Shown: one piece after another, positions 29,254-40,905 of the stretch
Layout of the letters: the number at the start of each line of letters is the position of its first letter
Position numbering within the stretch: position 1 is the stretch's first letter
DNA from: Candidatus Gottesmanbacteria bacterium CG_4_10_14_0_8_um_filter_37_24
GTDB taxonomy: Bacteria; Patescibacteriota; Microgenomatia; 2-02-FULL-39-11
Direction: 5' to 3'
NCBI GenBank assembly: GCA_002785215.1
Contig: PFMK01000091.1
Location: 1-43,281, forward strand
Length of the DNA: 43,281 bases
The notes under the pieces: model-generated
What the model was told of the DNA's origin: nothing
What the model saw: the letters and a program-made list of their open reading frames with translations, nothing else
Databases searched by the model: none
Made by a program: the position numbers and the translations under genes

Positions 29254-29598
29254 ATGAGCAGTAGAAAAGAAACTCCTAAAATTACTAAGACAAAAGATGG
29301 TAAATTGGTTTCATGGCGACATCCTGGAGGTAAATTGCTACGAGTCGGTCCTGATTCTTTAACAGATAGTGAACTTATTGCGATTCTAATAGGTAGTGGG
29401 GTTCCAGGTAAATCAGCAGAATCTATTGCTAACGAACTTTTATCTCGTTTTCAATCTTTCAGAGGACTTGCAAATCAACAATTAGAAAAGTTTAAGGAGA
29501 TAAAAGGTTTAAAAACTGTAAAAGTTGTTAGAATTGCTGCTGCATTTGAAATTGCAAAGCGAATTGTTAATCAAGTTCTTAAAGAGAGAGAGAAATGA
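29254..29598 (+). CDS. RadC N-terminal helix-hairpin-helix domain protein (no JAB/MPN domain)
   Basis: LTDSELIAILIGSGVPGKSAESIANELLSRFQSFRGLANQQLEKFKEIKGLKTVKVVRIAAAFEIAKR matches the N-terminal third of RadC/UPF0758. The ORF stops where the JAB domain would begin. Its TGA overlaps the next ATG. Confidence 0.7.
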   Translation: MSSRKETPKITKTKDGKLVSWRHPGGKLLRVGPDSLTDSELIAILIGSGVPGKSAESIANELLSRFQSFRGLANQQLEKFKEIKGLKTVKVVRIAAAFEIAKRIVNQVLKEREK

Positions 29599-32500
29599 TT
29601 AGAAATCCCAATCCATTTGATACTACTATCACAAAGACAGAACGCACTGATAACCAAAAAATTGTGGAGTGGATGAACCAAATTATAAGAGAAGAAAATC
29701 TTCATTTTGGACTGGCAGAACAGGAAACAAGTGGTAGTGATAGAAAGCAACCAGACATTATCCTTTTTAAAGCTCCACAAAGTACATTAGTATCATTAGT
29801 ATTAGAACTTAAACCACCTTATTTTGACCCATTAGATTATGAAGAAGTGAAAAAACCAGCATGGGATAAAGCAAATATAAGAAAAGCTCCGTATTTTGCT
29901 ACGTCTAATTTTAAGAGTTTATATCTTTTTAACACCGAAAAAGCAAATAAGTTTGAATCAGAGGAACGACAAATAATCGATAAATATACCCTATCAAGTT
30001 TAGAAGATTTAAATTTAATAGAAGAACTAATATATAAGAACTCGATACTAAAGAGTCTTACTATCTTTTTAAAAGACCTTGATGGTTATGTACATGGCCA
30101 AAAACCGGAGAAATTACTGGCAATCGATGAGTGGTTAATTTATAGACTGCAGGAGAAAGTAAAGATACTTTCAAATTACTACCGAAGACTGATAGAAGAA
30201 AAGAGTCTAAATGATATTGAATTTAGAAAAAGACTGAGGATTTGGTTTAATAGACAAGGTTGGGGGTTTACAGCCCAAACACAAGATTTTGCTAAAGCAG
30301 CAAGGCAAACAGCTTATCTTCTGGTTAATAAGATACTTTTCTATGATGTATTACGTACATCGTTTCCCCAAAATTTCCCACAGATGCATATACCAGACGA
30401 TTTCAATAAAGGTGGAATGGTGCAAAGACATTTACAAAACTTTTTCGATGAGGTTTTAAAAATTGATTATGAAACAATTTATTCAACTGATTTTATCGAC
30501 GAAACAGCTTTTCCTGATGATGAAAATGTTATTTATCACATAAGGGAATTAGTAAAGAGTCTTAATCGTTTTAATTTTGCGAAGATAGAATTTGAAGTGT
30601 TGGGACGGATTTTTGAGAGTTTAATTCCTCAAGAAGAAAGACATGTTCTAGGTCAGTATTTTACTCACTCGGATATAGTCGACCTCATTCTTTCTTTTGC
30701 TATCAGAAATGAGAAAGATAAAATATTTGACCCTGGTTGTGGAGCAGGAACTTTTCTTCGTCGTGCTTACCATCTAAAGAAGTTAATAAATCCCAATCTT
30801 ACCCATGATGAAATCATTCCGACTCTTTGGGGAAATGATATTGCGAAATTTCCCGCACATCTTGCTACTATCAATTTAGCCATTGCTGATTTAAAGAGTA
30901 AAGATAATTATCCTCGTATTGTGCAAAAAGACTTCTTTGAATGGAGACCTGGAATTGTTGACCTTCCTGAAAGTACCAAAAAAGTGTTTTTAAAAAGTCT
31001 AGGTAAGGAGGAAAAAGAAGTAGTAGTTCCAAAGTATTTCGATGCGATTGTTGGTAACCCACCTTATACTCGACAGGAAGAAATGGATGATTTAATGGGA
31101 AGCCAAGGTCAGAAATATAAAGAGGAATTAATTGAAAAAGCAGTCAGAGATGAGAGTGGAAGGTTATATGCAAATATATCAAAACGTGCTGGTCTTCATG
31201 CATATTTCTTTGTTCATGGGACTAAGTTTTTAAAGAGTAACGGACGATTTGGGTTTATCGTTTCCAATTCATGGTTAGATGTTGATTATGGAAAAGGCCT
31301 TCAAGAACACTTTCTAAAACACTACAAATTAAAGGCGGTTATTGAATCGAAGATAGAGAGATGGTTTGAAGATGCAGAGATAAATACTTGTATTGTTTTA
31401 CTTGAAAAGTGTGAGGGTGAAAATAAAGAAAAAGCTAAAGAGCGAGAAGAAAACCTTGTTAGATTTGTTTACCTCAAAAAGTGTCTGTCAGAATTTATAC
31501 CTAAAGCATCAAGGATATTTGAAGAAACTGTTGAAAGAAAAGAATCGGTAGAAAGACTTTTACAATATATTTTTTCCAAAACTGTTTTTTTTGAAAATGA
31601 TGACCTTAGAGTTTACTGTAAACCTCAAAAGGAGTTATGGGATGAAGGCTTTGATGATGAAATGCAAGAATATACCGGTTCTAAATGGGGTAAGTATATT
31701 CGAGCACCACAGATATTTTTTACCATACTAGAAAAAGCTAAAGACCAATTGATTCCACTCAAAAAAATCGCTACAGTAAGACGGGGTATTACCACAGGTG
31801 CAAATGAATTCTTTTACTTAACTGAAGATGAGATAAAAAGGAAAAAGATAGAAAAAGAATTCTGGATGCATAAAGACGAAAGTGGCAAATGGGTACCAAA
31901 TTACATTATCAGGTCTCCAAGAGAATGTAAGAGTATTATAGTAAATCCTCAAGATTTGAAATATAGAGTTCTGTTGGTACATAAGAATAGAGATGAACTT
32001 AAAGGAACACATTTATTGAGTTACATAAAAGAAGGAGAAAGAAAAGGTTTTCATAAAAGGCCAACATGTGAAAGTAGAAAAAAATGGTGGGATTTGGGTA
32101 GAAGAAGACAAGCATTACTGAATGTTAATTATTTAATCAATGATGTAGGAAGAGCATACATTGGAAAATATTGGGCAAGTGATGATTTTCAAGAAATTCA
32201 TACGGAAAAGAAAATAGAGGTATTTCTTAACTCTTCTATTTTTTGGCTCTTTCAGAATATCGAAGGTAGGACATCTTTTGGGGGCGGTTTACTAAAAATT
32301 CAGACGTATGAGTTTAAAAATTTACTTGTGGTTATACCTAATGATAAAGCAATAGAGTTATTTAAGAAACTGAGTACGAGACAAATTAATTCAGTATTTG
32401 AAGAGATAGGTGCCAATACAAGTGATGAGGTATCTATGTCTAAAATAAAACCTGATAGACATATTCTTGATAGTGTAATTATGGGAAATATACTGGGATT

Positions 32501-33035
32501 GACAGAGTTAGAGCAAATCGAGGTATATAAATCGGTGATAGACTTAGTAAGAAGTCGACTAGAGAGAGCAAAAAGTGTTAAGAAAAAAAATAAGACCAAA
32601 GAGGGAATAGACATTTCATTACTTGTTAAAACAATAATAGATAAAATTGGAGAGAATAGACTTGGAGAATTTTATAGGAAACATATTTTGAGTAGAAAAG
32701 ATTTGAAAAAGATAATTTTACCTGAGCTTACAGAGTCCCCCACAATCAGTCAAACTTTAATGGATTTCAGACTTATAAGCGGACGTAAGTCTATTGACTG
32801 TAATACTGAAGAAGAAGCAAAGTATTGCAAAGTATTTTTAGAGGCTGGTTGGAGTGAGGTAAAAGTCCCAAAAGATGCAGAATATTTAGGAAATATCTTA
32901 CTTCAATTAGAAAAAATCGGCAGAGAAGTAAAAGAGGCAATCACTTATTATACCGAAGGTGTTTTAGATACAAAAATCCAGAATCAAGTTGAACATATAG
33001 TATGGCAGGAGGTTTCAAGTTTAGAAACAAATTAA
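29595..33035 (+). CDS. Type IIG-like fused restriction endonuclease / N6-adenine DNA methyltransferase (Eco57I/TaqI-like gamma class) with a C-terminal specificity region
   Basis: The N-terminal HsdR-N/PD-(D/E)XK-like motif is QPD54IILF...LVLE71LK73 (29754-29813). Motif X is GQYFTHSDIV and motif I is FDPGCGAGTFL (from 30729). Motif IV is GNPPY (NPPY at 31056-31067). A TaqI_C-like RRGITTGANEFFYL is present, plus about 450 more residues. Confidence 0.8.
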   Translation: MIRNPNPFDTTITKTERTDNQKIVEWMNQIIREENLHFGLAEQETSGSDRKQPDIILFKAPQSTLVSLVLELKPPYFDPLDYEEVKKPAWDKANIRKAPYFATSNFKSLYLFNTEKANKFESEERQIIDKYTLSSLEDLNLIEELIYKNSILKSLTIFLKDLDGYVHGQKPEKLLAIDEWLIYRLQEKVKILSNYYRRLIEEKSLNDIEFRKRLRIWFNRQGWGFTAQTQDFAKAARQTAYLLVNKILFYDVLRTSFPQNFPQMHIPDDFNKGGMVQRHLQNFFDEVLKIDYETIYSTDFIDETAFPDDENVIYHIRELVKSLNRFNFAKIEFEVLGRIFESLIPQEERHVLGQYFTHSDIVDLILSFAIRNEKDKIFDPGCGAGTFLRRAYHLKKLINPNLTHDEIIPTLWGNDIAKFPAHLATINLAIADLKSKDNYPRIVQKDFFEWRPGIVDLPESTKKVFLKSLGKEEKEVVVPKYFDAIVGNPPYTRQEEMDDLMGSQGQKYKEELIEKAVRDESGRLYANISKRAGLHAYFFVHGTKFLKSNGRFGFIVSNSWLDVDYGKGLQEHFLKHYKLKAVIESKIERWFEDAEINTCIVLLEKCEGENKEKAKEREENLVRFVYLKKCLSEFIPKASRIFEETVERKESVERLLQYIFSKTVFFENDDLRVYCKPQKELWDEGFDDEMQEYTGSKWGKYIRAPQIFFTILEKAKDQLIPLKKIATVRRGITTGANEFFYLTEDEIKRKKIEKEFWMHKDESGKWVPNYIIRSPRECKSIIVNPQDLKYRVLLVHKNRDELKGTHLLSYIKEGERKGFHKRPTCESRKKWWDLGRRRQALLNVNYLINDVGRAYIGKYWASDDFQEIHTEKKIEVFLNSSIFWLFQNIEGRTSFGGGLLKIQTYEFKNLLVVIPNDKAIELFKKLSTRQINSVFEEIGANTSDEVSMSKIKPDRHILDSVIMGNILGLTELEQIEVYKSVIDLVRSRLERAKSVKKKNKTKEGIDISLLVKTIIDKIGENRLGEFYRKHILSRKDLKKIILPELTESPTISQTLMDFRLISGRKSIDCNTEEEAKYCKVFLEAGWSEVKVPKDAEYLGNILLQLEKIGREVKEAITYYTEGVLDTKIQNQVEHIVWQEVSSLETN

Positions 33036-33082: not shown

Positions 33083-35104
33083 ATGCTAGGTAAGAATATT
33101 AACGGATATAAAGTTGAGGAATTTTTAGGTAAGGGAGGATTTGGTGAAGTTTATAAAGCTACAAAGAATGGTTCTCAATATGCTATCAAGTTTATTCGCG
33201 AAGATTTTATATACAAGGATTATCAAAAAGAGTTATTACGGAGAGAAATAGCAGCACTTAGAAAAGTAAAAAGCAAATATACTGTAACTTTCTTCGAGGA
33301 TGGTACACATACAGAAGGTTATACTACTTATCGATATATTGTAATGGAGTTAGTAGAAGGACTTACTCTTAGAGAAATATTAGATAAGTATCCTAAACCA
33401 TGGCCACAAGATAAAGCCATCAAACTTATAACCTATGTACTTATGGGTTTATCAGATATTCATAAAAAAGATATTATCCACCGCGATTTGAAGCCAGAAA
33501 ATATAAAGATAACTCCAAATAAAGAAGTAAAAATATTAGATTATGGTTTATCAAAAATTATTGATTATTCCTCAATTACGCAAACAGGTGTACCAGTTGG
33601 CTCTTTTTTCTATATGTCTCCAGAGCAAGTGAAAGGAGAGAAGCCATTAAAATGTGGAAGCGACTTTTATGCTATAGGAGTTGTGCTTTATGAGCTACTT
33701 ACCGGTCAAATACTGTTTTATCCCTCCACAAATGCTGAAATAATACATAAAACTATTAATGTTAAACCACCATATCCAACTTCTCTAAACCCTAAAATAT
33801 CCAACAATATTGAGAATGTCATCCTTAAGTTATTAGAAAAGGAAGTATACCAAAGGTATAGGACTATTGATGAGATTATCGAGGCATTAAACCAAAAGCC
33901 TATTACAGCTGTATCTGTTGCAACAGATAGAATAAAATTCTATCCGCGGGTAATTCAAAATGACACAAATATATTACAAGACTTTCTTAAGAATAATGAA
34001 ATAGATGGTGCCGATTTCCCAATAAATCTACATGCTCAATATAAAACTTTAAGTGCACTTTTACGCAGAAAAGCTAGTAAAATTGATTTCTTTTCAGACC
34101 CAAGTACTAATAGAATGGTTTATACAAATTTCAGAAAAACAAAAGGTCTGAGAGAATTACCTTATGCTCCTTCCGGGTATGACCCACTTACGACAGACGA
34201 TTTTAACAGTCAAATATCTATACAAAACTATGCTCAGAAAGTTATTGAATTACAGATTGCAAATGGTTGCAGTATTCTGACTGCTCCATTTTTCTATTTT
34301 GATAATACCAGTGATGAATGGTTTGTAGTCAATCTAAAACTATTAAGGGAAAGCGTTGATTATGTCAGAAAAAAGTATCCGCAATATAAAGTATCTGGTG
34401 CTATCTGCACTCAAGCAGAAATACTATGTAGACCTAAAGAACGTAAGACAATAATTGAAGATTTTGGTAATTGTGCAATGGATTTTTGCCAATTTTATAT
34501 CGATAAAATTTCTGAGACTATAGTAGATGCACAACTTTATAATTTTATTTCTACAGCTTTAGGTATCAAAAACTATAACAAAGCCAGGATTGTTAGTTGT
34601 AGAGTACCAGTAGTCGCATTGGGATTATTGACGATTGGATTTGATGCTATTACTTCTGGTTTAGGTGTTTTAGACTCTTTTAATAAAGGCGTGATAATTA
34701 AAGAAGAAGATATTACAGTGATGCCAACGAAGTACTATTTTCCAGATTTACTTATATCAGTAACTTATAGCTCAAAAACTAGGATGTATCAGGATATTAT
34801 AGCCCAAGAGTCAGATTTAAAAAAACAGCTACCTCAACTAAATATTAAATTAAAGTGTGATTGTTCTGGATGCATGCATACTTCAATGTCGGATACATAT
34901 CAAAAACCCCGATTGCACTTTTTACATGCTATAAAGAAAGATATTGATGAAATAAACTCAATAAGTTCAGCACAAAGAAAGAGTTATTTTATAGAGAGAA
35001 TTGATAAGGCGTATGATTTACAACAGAAGCTCATTGGGAGAGGTATACGATTACAATCTCCAACTTTTTTAAAGACTTGGAAAGAGATTTTAATGAAATT
35101 TTAG
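33083..35104 (+). CDS. Hanks-type Ser/Thr protein kinase fused to a ~390-aa unassigned C-terminal domain (CxCxxC...H motif)
   Basis: The kinase core has GKGGFGEVYKA, AIKFI, HRDLKPENI, DYG and SPEQ within the first ~270 aa. The C-terminal region has alternating short hydrophobic strands and helices, and C592-D-C594-S-G-C597-M-H599 ... H612-F-L-H615 (from 34856). Confidence 0.8.
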   Translation: MLGKNINGYKVEEFLGKGGFGEVYKATKNGSQYAIKFIREDFIYKDYQKELLRREIAALRKVKSKYTVTFFEDGTHTEGYTTYRYIVMELVEGLTLREILDKYPKPWPQDKAIKLITYVLMGLSDIHKKDIIHRDLKPENIKITPNKEVKILDYGLSKIIDYSSITQTGVPVGSFFYMSPEQVKGEKPLKCGSDFYAIGVVLYELLTGQILFYPSTNAEIIHKTINVKPPYPTSLNPKISNNIENVILKLLEKEVYQRYRTIDEIIEALNQKPITAVSVATDRIKFYPRVIQNDTNILQDFLKNNEIDGADFPINLHAQYKTLSALLRRKASKIDFFSDPSTNRMVYTNFRKTKGLRELPYAPSGYDPLTTDDFNSQISIQNYAQKVIELQIANGCSILTAPFFYFDNTSDEWFVVNLKLLRESVDYVRKKYPQYKVSGAICTQAEILCRPKERKTIIEDFGNCAMDFCQFYIDKISETIVDAQLYNFISTALGIKNYNKARIVSCRVPVVALGLLTIGFDAITSGLGVLDSFNKGVIIKEEDITVMPTKYYFPDLLISVTYSSKTRMYQDIIAQESDLKKQLPQLNIKLKCDCSGCMHTSMSDTYQKPRLHFLHAIKKDIDEINSISSAQRKSYFIERIDKAYDLQQKLIGRGIRLQSPTFLKTWKEILMKF

Positions 35105-35761
35105 TGAAATAACCTGGTGAAGAAACAGTTCTTTAGCAAATAATCCCATCGATTCCTCGTAAAAAGAAAGGAATGAGTTTTGAGAAGGTTTCCGTTTGAA
35201 GTAAATCTCTCCATTCTTTTGATTAAATAAAATTAAGCCTATATCATGTCTATCAAGATAAGAATAGTCGATATTTGTTTCGTAGTTAGATAAGATTGCT
35301 AGATAACATTCATCGGTGTAACTTTTATATCTTCTTGCCTGCAGAACCCCTTGTTTCCAATCCTTTATTTTAGCCTCAATTGCTATAAGTTTCTTAATAG
35401 GATTTAAAATAGTATTTACTTTTTTAAAGTATTTTCTTCCGTCTTTAACAATATAATCACCAACTGCTAACAACTGAATAATCTCTCTACTAATATATTT
35501 GCTTGTGCCAGAGATTCTTATAACATCTTCTACTGTAAAAAGCGTGTCATTTGGTAATGAAAGAAAACTTTTTAGAGCGTAATAATTATTTATAGGTTTT
35601 CTATTTATAGAATTATTATTTGTAAAGAAGTCTTTTGCGAAGGCTAAATCTGCTATCCCATAACCTGCGGAGAATTCTTGAATAGCAATATCGGTATGGA
35701 AGGTTTTTTTTAATCCTTTGGCTAATTCAGCTACCAACTGATTTTCTGTCTGGATTTGCAT
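35090..35761 (-). CDS. PD-(D/E)XK nuclease-fold protein with an inserted winged-helix-like segment
   Basis: E29...GIAD38LAF and, about 90 residues later, IAIE128AK130IKDWKQGVLQARRY form a split D...ExK motif. The segment between them (FTVEDVIRISGTSKYISREIIQLLAVGDYIV) looks wHTH-like. The gene is convergent with the kinase gene and overlaps it by 15 nt. Confidence 0.55.
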   Translation of the reverse strand: MQIQTENQLVAELAKGLKKTFHTDIAIQEFSAGYGIADLAFAKDFFTNNNSINRKPINNYYALKSFLSLPNDTLFTVEDVIRISGTSKYISREIIQLLAVGDYIVKDGRKYFKKVNTILNPIKKLIAIEAKIKDWKQGVLQARRYKSYTDECYLAILSNYETNIDYSYLDRHDIGLILFNQKNGEIYFKRKPSQNSFLSFYEESMGLFAKELFLHQVISLKFH

Positions 35762-36015: not shown

Positions 36016-37026
36016 ATGGATATACAGAAAATAAAAATCAAAGGTGATTACAAACTGGCAGATATTGTCCATGATATTGAAAAGGGGATATTGCGGATTC
36101 CACAGTTTCAAAGAGAGTTTGTGTGGGATAAGCCAAGAGTGATTAAACTTCTAGAGAGTATATATCTTGAGTATCCAATTGGCTCTTTTTTCTTCTGGGA
36201 TGCACCAAGAAAATACTATGACTTTTATCGGGATATTGCCGAGTTGGGACTTCCTAAGCCTGATAAATACGAAAAGATTGTTTTTATTCTTGACGGCCAA
36301 CAACGGCTTACTTCCCTTTATGTAACAGTTAAAGGATTAACTCTATATGGCAGGGATTATAAAAAGATTTGTTTTGATTTAGACGAGAAAGTTTTTGTTG
36401 ACAGAACTCCAGACAATCAGCGGTATGTTTCCATCTGTGATTTGCTTTCCAACGAAAGATATGATGTTTATGAAGGTTTGACTGTTGAGCATAAAAAAGC
36501 GTTTAATGAGTGTTTTCAAAGGTTTAACAATTATCCTTTTTCGGCCATTGACGTTCGGGATAAAGAATTGGATGAGGTATGCGATATTTTTGAACGGATT
36601 AACCAAGGCGGGCAAAAACTTAATTTGTTTGACCTTATATCCGCCAGCACCTGGACACCCGAATTTGATTTACGGCTAGCGGTCAAAGGAGAAAACGAGA
36701 AGTTAAAAACAAAGGGATTCGGAGAAATTGACAACGAAGTCTACCTTCAGGCACTTTCTCTTATTGCCAAGGGTTCATGCACCAGACCTGTTCAGTTACA
36801 GTTGAAAGCCGAAGATGTCGGTAAGTTTTGGCAGAATACTATCGAATCCATCGCCCTGGCGATTGATTATTTGAGAAACAATTTAGGCGTTGTTAATTCT
36901 ATCTTTATTCCTTACCGCAGTATGATTGCCTTGGTTGCCTATCTGTTTTTCAAAAGTGGTAGGAAGCTTAAACCACGAACAATCAGAACTTCTAGCTCAA
37001 TGGTTCTGGCAGACCACATTCTCTGA
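36016..37026 (+). CDS. GmrSD-like type IV restriction enzyme, N-terminal DUF262 (ParB-like) fragment before a frameshift
   Basis: IPQFQREFVWDKPRVIKLLESIYLEYPIGSFFFWD and ILDGQQRLTSL are the DUF262 signatures. The reading frame ends in nonsense (KLKPRTIRTSSSMVLADHIL) after the T5/A4 runs at 36946-36955. Confidence 0.8.
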   Translation: MDIQKIKIKGDYKLADIVHDIEKGILRIPQFQREFVWDKPRVIKLLESIYLEYPIGSFFFWDAPRKYYDFYRDIAELGLPKPDKYEKIVFILDGQQRLTSLYVTVKGLTLYGRDYKKICFDLDEKVFVDRTPDNQRYVSICDLLSNERYDVYEGLTVEHKKAFNECFQRFNNYPFSAIDVRDKELDEVCDIFERINQGGQKLNLFDLISASTWTPEFDLRLAVKGENEKLKTKGFGEIDNEVYLQALSLIAKGSCTRPVQLQLKAEDVGKFWQNTIESIALAIDYLRNNLGVVNSIFIPYRSMIALVAYLFFKSGRKLKPRTIRTSSSMVLADHIL

Positions 37027-38425
37027 AAGATATGGAGCATCAATTTTGACTCTTATGACGGAAGACAGAAGAATTATGGATAAAATCGCTGAAGAGAGAG
37101 ATGTTACTATACGCTATCCCAATGATATAAATATAGAATCATTGATGGATATAAGGATGTATAGGAAGTCCGCTATCAAAAATGGAGTGTTATGTCTTCT
37201 TACTAGACGAAACCCTCTTCATTTTAAAAACAACACACAGCTACCTTTGAGAGACGTCTACTACTCAGATTTCAATAACGCTGAAAGACACCATATCTTC
37301 CCAAAATCTATTGTACAGAAAGCCTACCCCGCTATAAAAGTCCATTCACTGCCTAATTTCTGTTTTATACCAGCAGAACTCAATAAAGAAATTTCAAACA
37401 AAAAGCCAAGTAAATACTTTGCAGAGTTTGCCTCTGAAAATCCAGATTTTGAAGATACGCTCAAGACACACCTTATCAAATACGATGAATCTATTAAGAC
37501 CGATGATTTTATTTCCTTTCTCTCTTCAAGAGCAGCAGCTATGCTTGAGGAAATAACAAGAGCTACAGGTTCAAAAATAAGTAGAGTATCAGCTGATGAC
37601 GCTAATAAGGCGATAGACAAGGTAGAGAAATCCTTAAGGAATTTGTTGGATAAGAAGTTATCAGTAAAGAATGTAAATTACTGGAAAGGTCCTATTCCGG
37701 GCGATATTGTAGACGTAGTAAAAGGAAGATTGGACGATTATTTGAAGAAAGACCCTTCAAAAACAGTTAACGATTTTACCCCAAGAGATTTACTCGATTT
37801 CTGTGACATCATGGATTACTACAAAATAATCATCTGCAACTGGGACATATTCCAATCTCTTTTTAGGTCGAAAGTAGAAACTGAAAAAAGGTTTATCAAC
37901 CTCAAAGAATATCGCAACACTGTAAAACATAACAGAGGAGAAATCGTACCTTTTATAAAGAAAGAGGGAGAAGCGGCATTAGAGTGGTTATCGATTATCT
38001 TGGAGGAAAAAAGTAAAAAGAAGGAAGAAAAGTCTATAGCCCAAGATGATATTGGTATCGTATCTCACAAGATAAATAGCAAAGAAGAAATAGACACGAT
38101 TGTCTGCCCGGCAAAAGAAGATGGTTTTAAAGCGACCTTTTTAGGTGAGAAACAATGGTATTCAATAAGAATATCTTCATCAGTCATACCAAGACTTAAA
38201 TACTTGGCAATTTATGAAGTTTCACCAGTTAGCGCTATACGTTGGGCAGGTAAAGTACTGAAAGTTGAACTATTTGAGAATGGACCTAAATATAGAGTCT
38301 ATCTTTCAGAAATATTCAAAGTAGGACCTATTGAAAAAGATAGCCCAAAATTTGTTCCTCAGGGTTCTCGATATACGAAGTTTGATTTGCTCTCCAAAGC
38401 TAAAAAACTCTCTGATATTTTTTAG
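36926..38425 (+). CDS. GmrSD-like enzyme, C-terminal fragment: DUF262 helical part + DUF1524 (His-Me finger) + Swt1-like HEPN + small beta-rich terminal module
   Basis: The +1 frame continues with SLNHEQSELLAQWFWQTTFSERYG (DUF262 middle region), then NNAERHHIFPKS (DUF1524), then NLKEYR-NTVK-H (Rx4H, 37913-37930). A terminal module, YLAIYEVSPVSAIRWAGKV...RYTKFDLL, follows. The TTG start in the track is an artefact of the frameshift. Confidence 0.78.
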   Translation: MPWLPICFSKVVGSLNHEQSELLAQWFWQTTFSERYGASILTLMTEDRRIMDKIAEERDVTIRYPNDINIESLMDIRMYRKSAIKNGVLCLLTRRNPLHFKNNTQLPLRDVYYSDFNNAERHHIFPKSIVQKAYPAIKVHSLPNFCFIPAELNKEISNKKPSKYFAEFASENPDFEDTLKTHLIKYDESIKTDDFISFLSSRAAAMLEEITRATGSKISRVSADDANKAIDKVEKSLRNLLDKKLSVKNVNYWKGPIPGDIVDVVKGRLDDYLKKDPSKTVNDFTPRDLLDFCDIMDYYKIIICNWDIFQSLFRSKVETEKRFINLKEYRNTVKHNRGEIVPFIKKEGEAALEWLSIILEEKSKKKEEKSIAQDDIGIVSHKINSKEEIDTIVCPAKEDGFKATFLGEKQWYSIRISSSVIPRLKYLAIYEVSPVSAIRWAGKVLKVELFENGPKYRVYLSEIFKVGPIEKDSPKFVPQGSRYTKFDLLSKAKKLSDIF

Positions 38426-38626: not shown

Positions 38627-39184
38627 ATGTTTATAAAAGATTTATTATCTGAATTTATTTCAAAAATATCCAGTGGAGAATTGGAAATATACAATGAGGC
38701 AAGTATTCAATATGAGCTTGCTATCTTTCTCAGACAAAGACTTCCTAATTACAAAGTGCAACTTGAGAGAAGCATTAGATATTTTGGACTAAAGAAGCAG
38801 GGGTTTGAAAAGAGAGAAATTGACATTGTCATCTACGATACTGCTTTGCAGGATAAACATGCTATTGAGTTAAAATATCCGACAAATGGTCAATATCCTG
38901 AGCAGATGTTTAGTTTCTGTAAAGACATACGATTCTTAGAGCAATTAGCAGAGAACGGCTTTCATGAGAACTTATTTATCGTATTTGCAGATGACGCAAA
39001 CTTTTGGACAGGAAAATCCGCAGAAGACTCAATATACAGATTTTTTAGGGGTGGAATAGAGCTTCAAGGAACAATTACAAAACCCACAGGGAAAAAGAGC
39101 CATGAAATAGAACTCAGAAGAAACTATACTGTAAAATGGGAAAATATGAATGAAAAATTAAAATACTGGATTGCCGAAATATAA
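38627..39184 (+). CDS. PD-(D/E)XK nuclease-fold protein
   Basis: N-terminal helix with E..IQYELAIFLR, then EIDIVIYD...HAIELKYP (D...ExK). Length is 185 aa. Confidence 0.55.
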   Translation: MFIKDLLSEFISKISSGELEIYNEASIQYELAIFLRQRLPNYKVQLERSIRYFGLKKQGFEKREIDIVIYDTALQDKHAIELKYPTNGQYPEQMFSFCKDIRFLEQLAENGFHENLFIVFADDANFWTGKSAEDSIYRFFRGGIELQGTITKPTGKKSHEIELRRNYTVKWENMNEKLKYWIAEI

Positions 39185-39186
39185 TC

Positions 39187-39927
39187 ATGACAAGAAGACT
39201 GAATTCTTTTGAGCTTCATTTCAAAGATAAGAATGACCATGATAATGCAGTAATTATAGACAAAGAACCTGATACATGTCCTCTCTGTAATCATGGTATT
39301 GAGGCACTACTTATTGATGCATATGGTAAATCTGACTTAAACAAAGGTCATTTTATTCAATCCATATACAAGTGTCCTCGTATAGATTGTCAGACAGTTT
39401 TTATCGCATATTACACTTCGGGCTCTTGGTATGGACCTAGAAATATCAGTGAGTATGTTTTTCTTCAAAATACTTTTATACCAGCATATATAAAAGAGGA
39501 GAACTTTGAAAAAGAGATTGAAAGATTATCACCACAGTTTGTAGAAATATATACCCAAGCAAGTATTGCTGAAAACATGGGATTGAAAGCTATTTGCGGA
39601 GCAGGATACCGCAAGGCTTTAGAATACCTGATTAAAGACTATCTAAAACTGACCATGCCCACGATTACTAAAGAAGTAGAGAATCACTATTTAGGTTATG
39701 TGATAGCTAACTATGTTGGAAATGAAAGAATCAAAAAAATGGCAGGTTTAGCAAAGAACGTAGGCAACGATGAAACTCATTACATAAGGAAAATAGACAA
39801 ACTATCTTTAGAAGATTTAAAAAAGCTGATAAGACTTACTACTCATTGGATAACTGACGAATTGCTTACAGAAGAATACGCCACAATTTACGAAAAGTTA
39901 ATGACTAATGACAAAGATAAAAAATAA
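39187..39927 (+). CDS. Zn-ribbon + DUF4145 (HEPN-superfamily) protein
   Basis: CPLCNHG...CPRIDCQ at the N-terminus. The C-terminal AICGAGYRKALEYLIKDY...LAKNVGNDETHY fits the DUF4145 pattern (R.alE.l......GN...H). The gene starts 2 nt after the preceding stop. Confidence 0.6.
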   Translation: MTRRLNSFELHFKDKNDHDNAVIIDKEPDTCPLCNHGIEALLIDAYGKSDLNKGHFIQSIYKCPRIDCQTVFIAYYTSGSWYGPRNISEYVFLQNTFIPAYIKEENFEKEIERLSPQFVEIYTQASIAENMGLKAICGAGYRKALEYLIKDYLKLTMPTITKEVENHYLGYVIANYVGNERIKKMAGLAKNVGNDETHYIRKIDKLSLEDLKKLIRLTTHWITDELLTEEYATIYEKLMTNDKDKK

Positions 39928-39993: not shown

Positions 39994-40905
39994 CTAACTC
40001 ATCTTCAGTAATTTTGAAGCAACCACAGCTAAAAGACTGCCTGTAAAATTTGAAATTGTGTCTGTAGCCACCCTTTTTAACCAAGCAACAGCCTTATTTT
40101 TAAAATTTTTATCTTTTTTAATCCTTTTCTCAAATTCATTCTTCACTATTCTATGGATTCTCCTTTTCAAAACATCATCACTAACTTCTGAATAAGTCTT
40201 ATCAATCTTTTTAATTATTTCAGTCCATTTACTCAATGGAGATTCACTTAATAAGTCAACATTCTTAGAAATGTCTTTAACAATTTTTTGATGATTTATT
40301 TTTATTATTTGTGGGGAGTTTCTTTTATTTATTGAAGCATCGATATTTGAATTTATGACATCTCCCCCTACATTAATATTAGTTATTTGATTAATGCCAT
40401 TTTTTTTGGAAAAGATTTTTTTATAAATTATTACTTGTCTTTCATCTGCTTCTCTAAATTTATAGAATACATTTTTTCTTGGGACTATTCTCAAAATCTC
40501 TGCAGCTACTTCTAATTCTCCTTCTTTGAATAAAACATTAAACCATTTTAAAAAATTTCTACCTAGTATAGGACAAGGCACTTCTATTTTGGGAGAAAAA
40601 AAGACATCCAAAGGAAATTCGACAGTAGAAAGTCTACAACTAAGTTTAGTACTATATACATTTATTACACGACTGTCGATACCTATAACCTGATTAGTCT
40701 CTAATTTTTTATAGTTAACTTTACCTTCAAATAATGACAGTATTATTTTATAAGGAACTAAGGACATGTCTGCCCCTGTATCTAATAGAAAACGAAAACT
40801 GTAGGCTCTATTTTTTAACCCCAAAATATCTACAGGGATTATAGGGGTAGCTATCTTGCCAAAACCAATACTATCTCGAAATTCATAAGGGAATCTATAA
40901 ATCAT
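39994..40905 (-). CDS. Retropepsin-like (clan AA) aspartic protease domain protein with a ~170-aa C-terminal extension
   Basis: FRFLLDTGADMSLVP carries the D-T-G-A catalytic motif, and ILGRNFL is the typical downstream strand. The C-terminus is Lys-rich and ends in a hydrophobic helix (SLLAVVASKLL). Confidence 0.6.
   Translation of the reverse strand: MIYRFPYEFRDSIGFGKIATPIIPVDILGLKNRAYSFRFLLDTGADMSLVPYKIILSLFEGKVNYKKLETNQVIGIDSRVINVYSTKLSCRLSTVEFPLDVFFSPKIEVPCPILGRNFLKWFNVLFKEGELEVAAEILRIVPRKNVFYKFREADERQVIIYKKIFSKKNGINQITNINVGGDVINSNIDASINKRNSPQIIKINHQKIVKDISKNVDLLSESPLSKWTEIIKKIDKTYSEVSDDVLKRRIHRIVKNEFEKRIKKDKNFKNKAVAWLKRVATDTISNFTGSLLAVVASKLLKMS

Follow-up and report, generated by a model that had tools for sequence, protein, structure and literature searches.

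tRNA-guanine transglycosylase (TGT) and the DNA-modifying DpdA proteins (PF01702; PDB 1PUD, 1IQ8, 7UI4) are built on a (β/α)8 barrel with a zinc site of the form CxCx2C-x22-H, in which the Cys residues lie in the β8-α8 insertion and the His in the following helix, and three active-site Asp residues, invariant in both groups, act as general acid/base, in base recognition and as nucleophile (PMC10164549). TGT-family proteins are known in defense from Dpd and from Cap10 of the cyclic-oligonucleotide-based antiphage signaling system (CBASS). Other described systems rely on kinases or nucleases, including the single-gene kinase PD-T4-6, MAD6 of the methylation-associated defense system (MADS), PglW of bacteriophage exclusion (BREX) type 2/Pgl, and the Shedu-like sensor-nuclease cassettes. 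All of these share features with a locus on contig PFMK01000091.1 (assembly GCA_002785215.1) of Candidatus Gottesmanbacteria bacterium CG_4_10_14_0_8_um_filter_37_24, of which we analyzed 43,281 nucleotides (positions 1 to 43,281, hereafter the window). A kinase-barrel gene at this locus encodes a Ser/Thr kinase continued by a C-terminal domain of some 400 residues (Table 1), which the original prediction, made from the sequence, had likened to the barrel and zinc site of TGT and DpdA. Here, we report that this domain is a predicted triosephosphate isomerase (TIM) barrel with a putative zinc knuckle (TIM/Zn), that it defines a widespread family, and that its gene is almost always paired with a gene for a predicted nuclease, with which it probably forms a mobile cassette of the defense type.

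Residues 275-673 were modeled with AlphaFold2 from a 21-sequence domain alignment, giving a mean predicted local distance difference test (pLDDT) score of 85.1 and a predicted template modeling score (pTM) of 0.88. The model confirms residues ~275-673 as a predicted TIM-barrel domain: strands at residues 285-289, 309-311, 336-338, 398-400, 436-444, 468-474, 502-505 and 522-525 are separated by helices, and downstream of β8 come a β-hairpin (550-553/558-561), two short helices, the Cys-containing loop and three long helices. A Foldseek comparison with the PDB returned 49 matches at E ≤ 1e-3, with probability 1.00, and all 50 of the 50 matches listed are TIM-barrel enzymes, among them isopropylmalate synthase, glycoside hydrolase family 53 (GH53) galactanases, MJ1099, the homocysteine domain of MetH, GH84, dihydrodipicolinate synthase, AroD and 2-keto-3-deoxy-6-phosphogalactonate (KDPGal) aldolase, as well as eukaryotic and bacterial TGTs. 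AlphaFold2 and Foldseek agree with the barrel-like fold that had been read from seven short strand peptides; these peptides (residues 286-528) are all correctly placed and account for seven of the eight strands, with β2 having been missed. The C-terminal helices keep H612-F-L, R632, A643, L663 and W666 in distant family members, and as a fragment this helical region has no structural match in the PDB.

Conservation was measured on 91 distant representatives aligned with the close clade. Pocket residues kept family-wide lie at the C-terminal ends of the strands and comprise D339-P340-x-T342 (β3), Q391, P402-F/Y403 (β4), N417, D474 (β6), G519...S525-G526 (β8), D/E531 and Y552. Within the D-P-x-T motif at the end of β3, D339 is 89% conserved and is the best-conserved polar residue of the family. 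One reading of this pocket is that the barrel has a phosphorylated small molecule (a nucleotide, a sugar phosphate resembling phosphoribosyl pyrophosphate (PRPP), or a signaling nucleotide) as its ligand or substrate, and would then serve either as a sensor that licenses the nuclease and the kinase or as an effector that depletes nucleotides. Such a ligand would fit the strongest of the compact structural matches, namely MJ1099 with PRPP (TMt 0.56-0.61), KDPGal aldolase (0.52) and AroD (0.54), as well as the conserved Gly-rich segments after β7 and β8 (G-x-x-G-F/Y-S-S-G), which presumably resemble the motif by which many TIM barrels bind phosphate. We nevertheless consider this reading improbable, given that the Foldseek matches are generic, that neither sequence nor profile searches linked the domain to a family of this kind, and that the gene tables show no conserved cyclase or other signal-generating gene nearby.

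The original prediction also pointed to a CxCxxC...H motif near the C-terminus, and its residue numbers (C592, C594, C597, H599, H612 and H615) are all correct. In the model, C592, C594 and C597 sit in a loop past the post-β8 insertion and H612 lies in the first turns of the next long helix, with pLDDT of ~89-93 around the motif. The three Cys residues are retained in 95% (C592), 78% (C594) and 93% (C597) of the distant members and H612 in 98%, while position 599 is mostly Gly and position 615 is Tyr, His or Phe. Because H612 is the conserved His and H599 and H615 are not, H612 is the candidate for the fourth ligand; the motif therefore stands as conserved and located after β8, and two of the three His residues originally offered for it do not. 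The third Cys is separated from the conserved His by 14-17 residues in 72 of 85 sequences. Judged from the alignments, the Cys/His motif is far beyond chance, and the post-β8 insertion is probably held by a structural Cys3-His zinc site. Two thirds of the close homologues keep CxCxxC...H, and in one sub-clade of Patescibacteria (P0034-P0043; seven of the 21 aligned sequences) H612 and the three Cys residues have all disappeared, a joint loss that would fit a structural, dispensable metal site rather than a catalytic one.

To define the family to which this domain belongs, we surveyed homologues at two depths. Close homologues form 44 clusters at 90% identity, all of which are kinase fusions (~670 aa) from Patescibacteria. 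When 1.84 billion representatives (clusters at 50% identity) were searched with a profile, 258 family members were retrieved at E ≤ 1e-3, including 95 at E ≤ 1e-10, from Patescibacteria, Bacillota, plasmids of Actinomycetota and one metagenome-assembled genome (MAG) of an Asgard archaeon. In architecture, some are kinase fusions (~670-690 aa), many stand alone at ~380-430 aa, and a few have other N-terminal extensions; some of the stand-alone members are followed by a PIN-domain gene. Neither the single sequence, nor a profile of the 21-sequence clade, nor one of 55 stand-alone members had a domain match in Pfam, NCBIfam, PADLOC or the PDB sequences, and in 63 diverse members no Pfam, PADLOC or NCBIfam model matched outside the kinase. 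The unannotated PHROGs 4972, 14300 and 9248 match 9-11 of these 63 members, counts in which coverage of the kinase and of the barrel is not distinguished. All family members are named "hypothetical protein" in their sources, and the searched literature holds no description of a kinase/TIM-barrel/TGT-like defense architecture, with no model in the family libraries of 2023-2026, which upholds the earlier impression that the architecture was undescribed. By sequence criteria, residues ~275-673 are a previously unannotated domain that defines a broad and widespread family.

The constant neighbor of the family is the convergent partner gene downstream of the kinase-barrel gene. Its product has residues that are 100% conserved in 121 homologues (E29, D38, E129-x-K131 and Q141-x-x-R144-Y145) and that read as the PD-(D/E)xK signature plus a RecB-like QxxxY. 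An insert at residues ~59-110 weakly matches the winged helices of MarR and Crp in a PDB profile search (E 0.007 and 0.03), and Pfam detects HTH_46 (9.5e-4) in some members and NERD, weakly (E 0.04), in one; the window protein itself matches no Pfam, PADLOC or NCBIfam family. The partner is likely a PD-(D/E)xK-type nuclease, with its catalytic residues intact, interrupted by a predicted winged-helix DNA-binding insert.

Neighboring genes were compared in 32 loci, some of them redundant (L001-L012 and L093-L112). Of 20 distinct loci, the window counted, 19 have the partner directly beside the TIM/Zn gene, and a reverse check that started from the partner recovered the TIM/Zn gene as its neighbor. 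Each Patescibacteria locus examined carries, after its kinase fusion, a convergent gene of 223-232 aa that overlaps it slightly and is 51-60% identical to the window partner; adjacency was seen in L001-L004 and L103-L112, and in a scan of genome contigs with the clade alignment, the pair was present in 10 of 10 loci from species-representative Patescibacteria MAGs. Beside other forms of the family the partner is more distant (26-31% identity, hidden Markov model (HMM) E 1e-15 to 1e-91). It accompanies another kinase fusion (L093/94) and stand-alone members (L007-L012, L095-L097 and L100-L102), which include prophage-like loci (L007-L009, and L100 in Aneurinibacillus terranovensis), a metagenomic contig (L095/96) and a Heimdallarchaeota MAG in which it is short (128 aa; L097). 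At five of the stand-alone loci (L010-L012, L101 and L102), a PIN_3 gene of 150-153 aa overlaps the end of the barrel gene and lies between it and the convergent partner, so that in this sub-family PIN_3 replaces the kinase as the accessory module. Plasmid p6_CACC119 of Priestia megaterium (L098; NZ_CP140272.1 27082-29751) carries a kinase-barrel gene (WP_322552809.1) with its convergent partner (WP_322552810.1).

Two of the plasmid loci have further neighbors that we record here. The Priestia megaterium pair, in a cultivable Bacillota host, adjoins genes for a Y-family polymerase and a YolD-like protein on a mobilizable plasmid. A divergent 409-aa member on plasmids of Clavibacter michiganensis (L099; for example, NZ_CP085108.1 3788-5017) adjoins a RES-Xre toxin-antitoxin pair and a gene for a 325-aa hypothetical protein.

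Because the family gene almost always adjoins the nuclease gene, the functional unit appears to be a mobile two-gene cassette, and its settings are the low-GC region of the window described below, prophage accessory regions and plasmids, spread across phyla. We hold, at slightly better than even odds, that this cassette is of the defense type and that the barrel is its sensing or processing subunit, acting with the nuclease while kinase and PIN modules are exchanged. In such a system, the TIM/Zn protein would be the constant subunit for sensing or substrate processing, with an acidic and polar pocket centered on D339 and T342 and completed by Q391, P402-Y/F, N417, D474, the Gly-rich β7 and β8 loops, D/E531 and Y552. 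Its task would be to cooperate with the DNA-binding nuclease or to gate it, and the kinase (or PIN elsewhere) would be an exchangeable second effector or regulatory arm, the whole acting as a module against phages or other mobile elements. The coupling of the two proteins, physical or functional, and the defense role are what we infer from the pairing and its settings.

Several observations weigh against this assignment. No experiment or curated family ties either protein to defense, and the PADLOC models of 2023 cover neither; the nuclease fold of the partner is predicted from motifs and weak profile matches rather than from a structure; and the partner was not detected beside the divergent Clavibacter member. 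Context can also mislead, and the cassette could serve toxin-antitoxin or mobile-element maintenance functions, just as the conserved barrel residues could equally mark the site of a small-molecule enzyme unrelated to immunity. Read purely as an addiction or toxin-antitoxin system of mobile elements, without a part in immunity, the pair would consist of a toxin (the nuclease) and an antidote (the TIM/Zn protein), as its tightly linked and overlapping genes, its carriage on plasmids and prophages, and its proximity to toxin-antitoxin genes such as RES-Xre and PIN might suggest. Nonetheless, an enzyme-like barrel of ~400 aa with a conserved pocket would be unusual as an antitoxin, defense is the better match for a protein that is fused to an active kinase and encoded in a defense island, and many modules of the toxin-antitoxin kind also act in defense, so that we judge an addiction module very unlikely.

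The two linked families reported here are not represented among the models of Pfam, NCBIfam and PADLOC, have no relative of solved structure, occur across distant phyla and carry swappable kinase and PIN modules. Should the defense-type cassette prove to be an immune system, the zinc-pinned TIM barrel would be a new sensor or enzyme fold in the anti-phage repertoire, and the system would be a rare defense common to ultra-small bacteria of the candidate phyla radiation (CPR) and cultivable Bacillota. The versions from the Priestia megaterium plasmid, Paenibacillus and Aneurinibacillus make it directly testable.

Is the barrel, as had been suggested, a relative of TGT and DpdA? It shares with them the (β/α)8 barrel, a CxCxxC after β8, a His in the next helix and an Asp at the end of β3. 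It differs in its fused kinase and nearly constant nuclease partner, and in having no link to preQ0, DpdB or DpdC. Among the PDB matches listed, TGT chains have the highest template modeling scores (TM-scores) and the longest alignments (7b2i_C 0.52, 7ovs_C 0.51, 6h62_B 0.49 and 7nq4_A 0.48). Their Foldseek E-values of ~1e-4 place them sixth or lower, amid isopropylmalate synthase, GH53, MJ1099 and MetH barrels and no better than these unrelated folds, and DpdA (7UI4) is absent from the best 50 matches. A model running from β7 to the C-terminus and including the zinc knuckle (pLDDT 85.3) retrieved no TGT or DpdA and no significant PDB match (best E 3.3).

The active-site residues divide in the same way, their equivalences having been set by position in the model, without superposition. 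D339 is placed where the general acid/base Asp lies (D63 of CAjan DpdA) and is plausibly the first of the three Asp residues. Position 521 on β8, equivalent to the nucleophile, is Asp in >90% of the Patescibacteria clade, to which the window protein belongs, and in 13% of the distant members, where S, A, T or N occurs instead. After β4 comes A-P-[Y/F], with Pro in 97% of the distant members, in place of the base-recognition Asp. Sequence comparisons were negative throughout: Pfam gave the domain no match, to TGT or to any other model, at E ≤ 10, and none at E ≤ 0.01 in the 63 diverse members, and the family profiles found no TGT among PDB sequences. With a 112-sequence family alignment, hhalign gave probabilities of 0.5% against CAjan DpdA and 3.5% against Escherichia coli TGT, negatives that are uninformative because the known relation of DpdA to TGT itself scores just 1.7% with thin templates. 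Similarly, phage DpdA has no Pfam match, and a DpdA profile, which is narrow (relatives listed at least 68% identical, and at least 59% in a scan of viral contigs), retrieves no TGT from the PDB.

The 7-deazaguanine genes to which the original prediction had looked are likewise missing. Searches of the window by tblastn with FolE, QueD, QueC, QueE and YhhQ of CAjan and with TGT and QueA of E. coli all gave E > 1, and the gene tables of related loci contain no folE, queC/D/E, tgt or dpdB/C-like genes. The likeness to TGT is partly supported: it extends to the fold and to where the motif sits, the evidence does not establish membership in the superfamily, and the domain fails on two of its defining features. 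The fold, the placement of the motif and the TM-scores speak for what had first been proposed, and the sequence and profile comparisons, the His spacing, Asp521 and the zinc-subdomain model do not.

These data bear on the proposal that the domain belongs, as a very distant member, to the TGT/DpdA group and exchanges or attaches a base, on DNA in the manner of DpdA or on a protein in that of CBASS Cap10; the nuclease would be its cognate restriction enzyme or effector, the two forming a minimal modification-restriction pair to which the kinase is an add-on. The barrel, the TM-scores of the TGT chains, the post-β8 CxCxxC with its His in the next helix as in DpdA and TGT (PMC10164549), and the 89% conservation of D339 at the general acid/base position are what such a protein would have, and D521 is present in the clade of the window. 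Moreover, the best hhalign segment, although insignificant, pairs "DPxT" with the "DSGA" of DpdA, viral matches include several uncharacterized phage proteins of ~290-320 aa and one phage TGT, and R-M (restriction-modification) systems typically have gene pairs that converge and overlap. The missing HMM similarity is weak counter-evidence, as a genuine phage DpdA fails the same tests. We still regard the proposal as unlikely, in view of the Foldseek and zinc-subdomain results, a His spacing of 14-17 rather than 22-26 residues, the scarcity of the nucleophile-equivalent Asp in distant members and the invariant Pro in place of the base-recognition Asp, the lack of preQ0/7-deazaguanine genes, DpdB and DpdC in the window and the examined loci, and the loss of the entire zinc site in one sub-clade. 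A TGT-like base-exchange activity of the modeled barrel is possible on its resemblance in fold alone; if the barrel were TGT-derived, nucleobase-exchange chemistry in immunity would extend beyond Dpd and CBASS Cap10. The fuller version of this idea, in which a deeply divergent TGT offshoot performing base exchange or nucleobase conjugation is coupled to the winged-helix nuclease (and here to the kinase) as a minimal modification-dependent immunity, seems to us quite unlikely; if true, its range would take in CPR bacteria, plasmids of Bacillota and Asgard archaea.

The kinase half of the protein connects the locus to other described systems. Pfam Pkinase (PF00069) covers residues 9-265 (E 1.2e-47; 163 bits vs a cutoff of 31.7), and the kinase motifs are complete (K36, E55, H133-R-D135, N140, D153-Y-G and S179-P-E181) and invariant across 25 homologues. 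The PADLOC matches to PD-T4-6 (7e-69) and mad6 (3.9e-62) are both confined to the kinase part, at residues ~5-275, which in sequence resembles these defense kinases closely; a defense-island setting is common to them, whereas the C-terminal 400 residues and the nuclease partner fall outside those models. MADS itself was considered and rejected: MAD6 scores 140.7 bits vs a cutoff of 460 and MAD2 66.5 vs 720 (a partial match of the upstream methyltransferase), the other mad genes are absent, and the methyltransferase neighbor is missing from all other loci. The locus has in common with BREX type 2 a Ser/Thr kinase and a PD-(D/E)xK-type (NERD) nuclease, a defense context and an Eco57I-like methyltransferase neighbor. 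PglW, however, is a single nuclease-kinase of 1400 aa with the partners PglX, PglY and PglZ, whereas here the genes are separate, and BREX-2 was rejected in view of an NCBIfam PglW score of 46 bits vs a cutoff of 990, the absence of PglZ, BrxC and BrxD, and a methyltransferase neighbor that is not conserved. With the Shedu-like class, the cassette shares its small size and mobility, its PD-(D/E)xK nuclease, variable effectors, and prophage, plasmid and island settings; unlike that class, neither of its proteins has a PADLOC or Pfam match to it, and a TIM-barrel/zinc partner has not been described there.

Table 1. Coordinates in the window of the kinase-barrel gene, its domains, its partner and the surrounding features.
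Feature	Position	Strand	Size or residues	Basis or remark
Kinase-barrel gene	33083..35104	+	673 aa	Barrel domain makes up the 3' 60% of the open reading frame (ORF)
Hanks-type Ser/Thr kinase domain	33083..33904	+	Residues 1-274	Pfam Pkinase match
Predicted (β/α)8 TIM barrel plus β-hairpin	33935..34765	+	Residues ~285-561	AlphaFold2 model, Foldseek, conservation
Putative Cys3-His zinc knuckle	34856..34918	+	C592, C594, C597, H612	Sequence, conservation, model
C-terminal three-helix region	34901..35101	+	Residues ~607-672	Model helices 333-351, 355-378, 387-398 (model numbering)
Partner gene, predicted nuclease	35090..35761	-	223 aa	Convergent, 15-nt overlap with the 3' end of the kinase-barrel gene; homologue beside family genes
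Type IIG restriction enzyme, Eco57I/MmeI-like, upstream	29595..33035		1146 aa	Pfam/PADLOC
RadC/UPF0758 N-terminal helix-hairpin-helix ORF without JAB	29254-29598	+	114 aa	E 2.4e-18
GmrSD-like type IV enzyme, two overlapping ORFs	36016-37026; 36926-38425	+		GmrSD_N 1e-32; HEC-05 C-terminal part
ORF without annotation	38627-39184		185 aa	
Protein with Cys-rich, zinc-ribbon-like N-terminus (CPLC...CPRIDC)	39187-39927	+	246 aa	DUF4145, weak
Aspartyl protease-like protein	39994-40905	-	303 aa	Pfam RVP 5.3e-5, 'LLDTGADMSL' motif
tRNA-Ile, TAT (UAU) anticodon	334-407	-		

Between positions ~27000 and 41000, the GC content of the window is 0.29-0.34 vs 0.35-0.43 elsewhere. The type IIG R-M gene, GmrSD, the kinase cassette and neighboring uncharacterized genes all fall in this low-GC block, which is consistent with a horizontally acquired defense island. 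The other loci of the family lie in prophage lysis and recombinase regions, on plasmids, and near toxin-antitoxin, PIN and methyltransferase genes. In the other loci examined, tblastn (1e-5) detected no homologues of the type IIG enzyme, the RadC-N ORF, GmrSD or the remaining neighbors, and on that ground the first three were rejected as parts of the cassette. Because these neighbors are absent from the other loci, the position of the kinase-barrel gene beside an R-M enzyme is a local co-residence; the original prediction had named this enzyme as context, a role that passes to the conserved nuclease gene.

Among the remaining genes of the block, the stop of the RadC-N ORF overlaps the start of the type IIG gene at position 29595. 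The split of GmrSD could be genuine, making this a bipartite gene, or could stem from a frameshift, a pseudogene or an error in sequencing; its second ORF has a long extra C-terminal region in which residues ~228-337 match PADLOC PDC-M34B. The DUF4145 match of the 246-aa protein (E 0.0066, 16.9 bits) is below the Pfam cutoff of 23.1. DUF4145 often occurs in R-M and abortive-infection contexts. The unannotated ORF directly precedes this gene, and the two may form another two-gene module. At the edge of the island, the aspartyl protease-like protein has its retroviral-type domain in the N-terminal half and a Lys-rich C-terminal half. Outside the block, the sole tRNA of the window has an anticodon that gives an unusual reading of AUA; tRNA-Ile(UAU) is typical of lineages without the lysidine synthase TilS.

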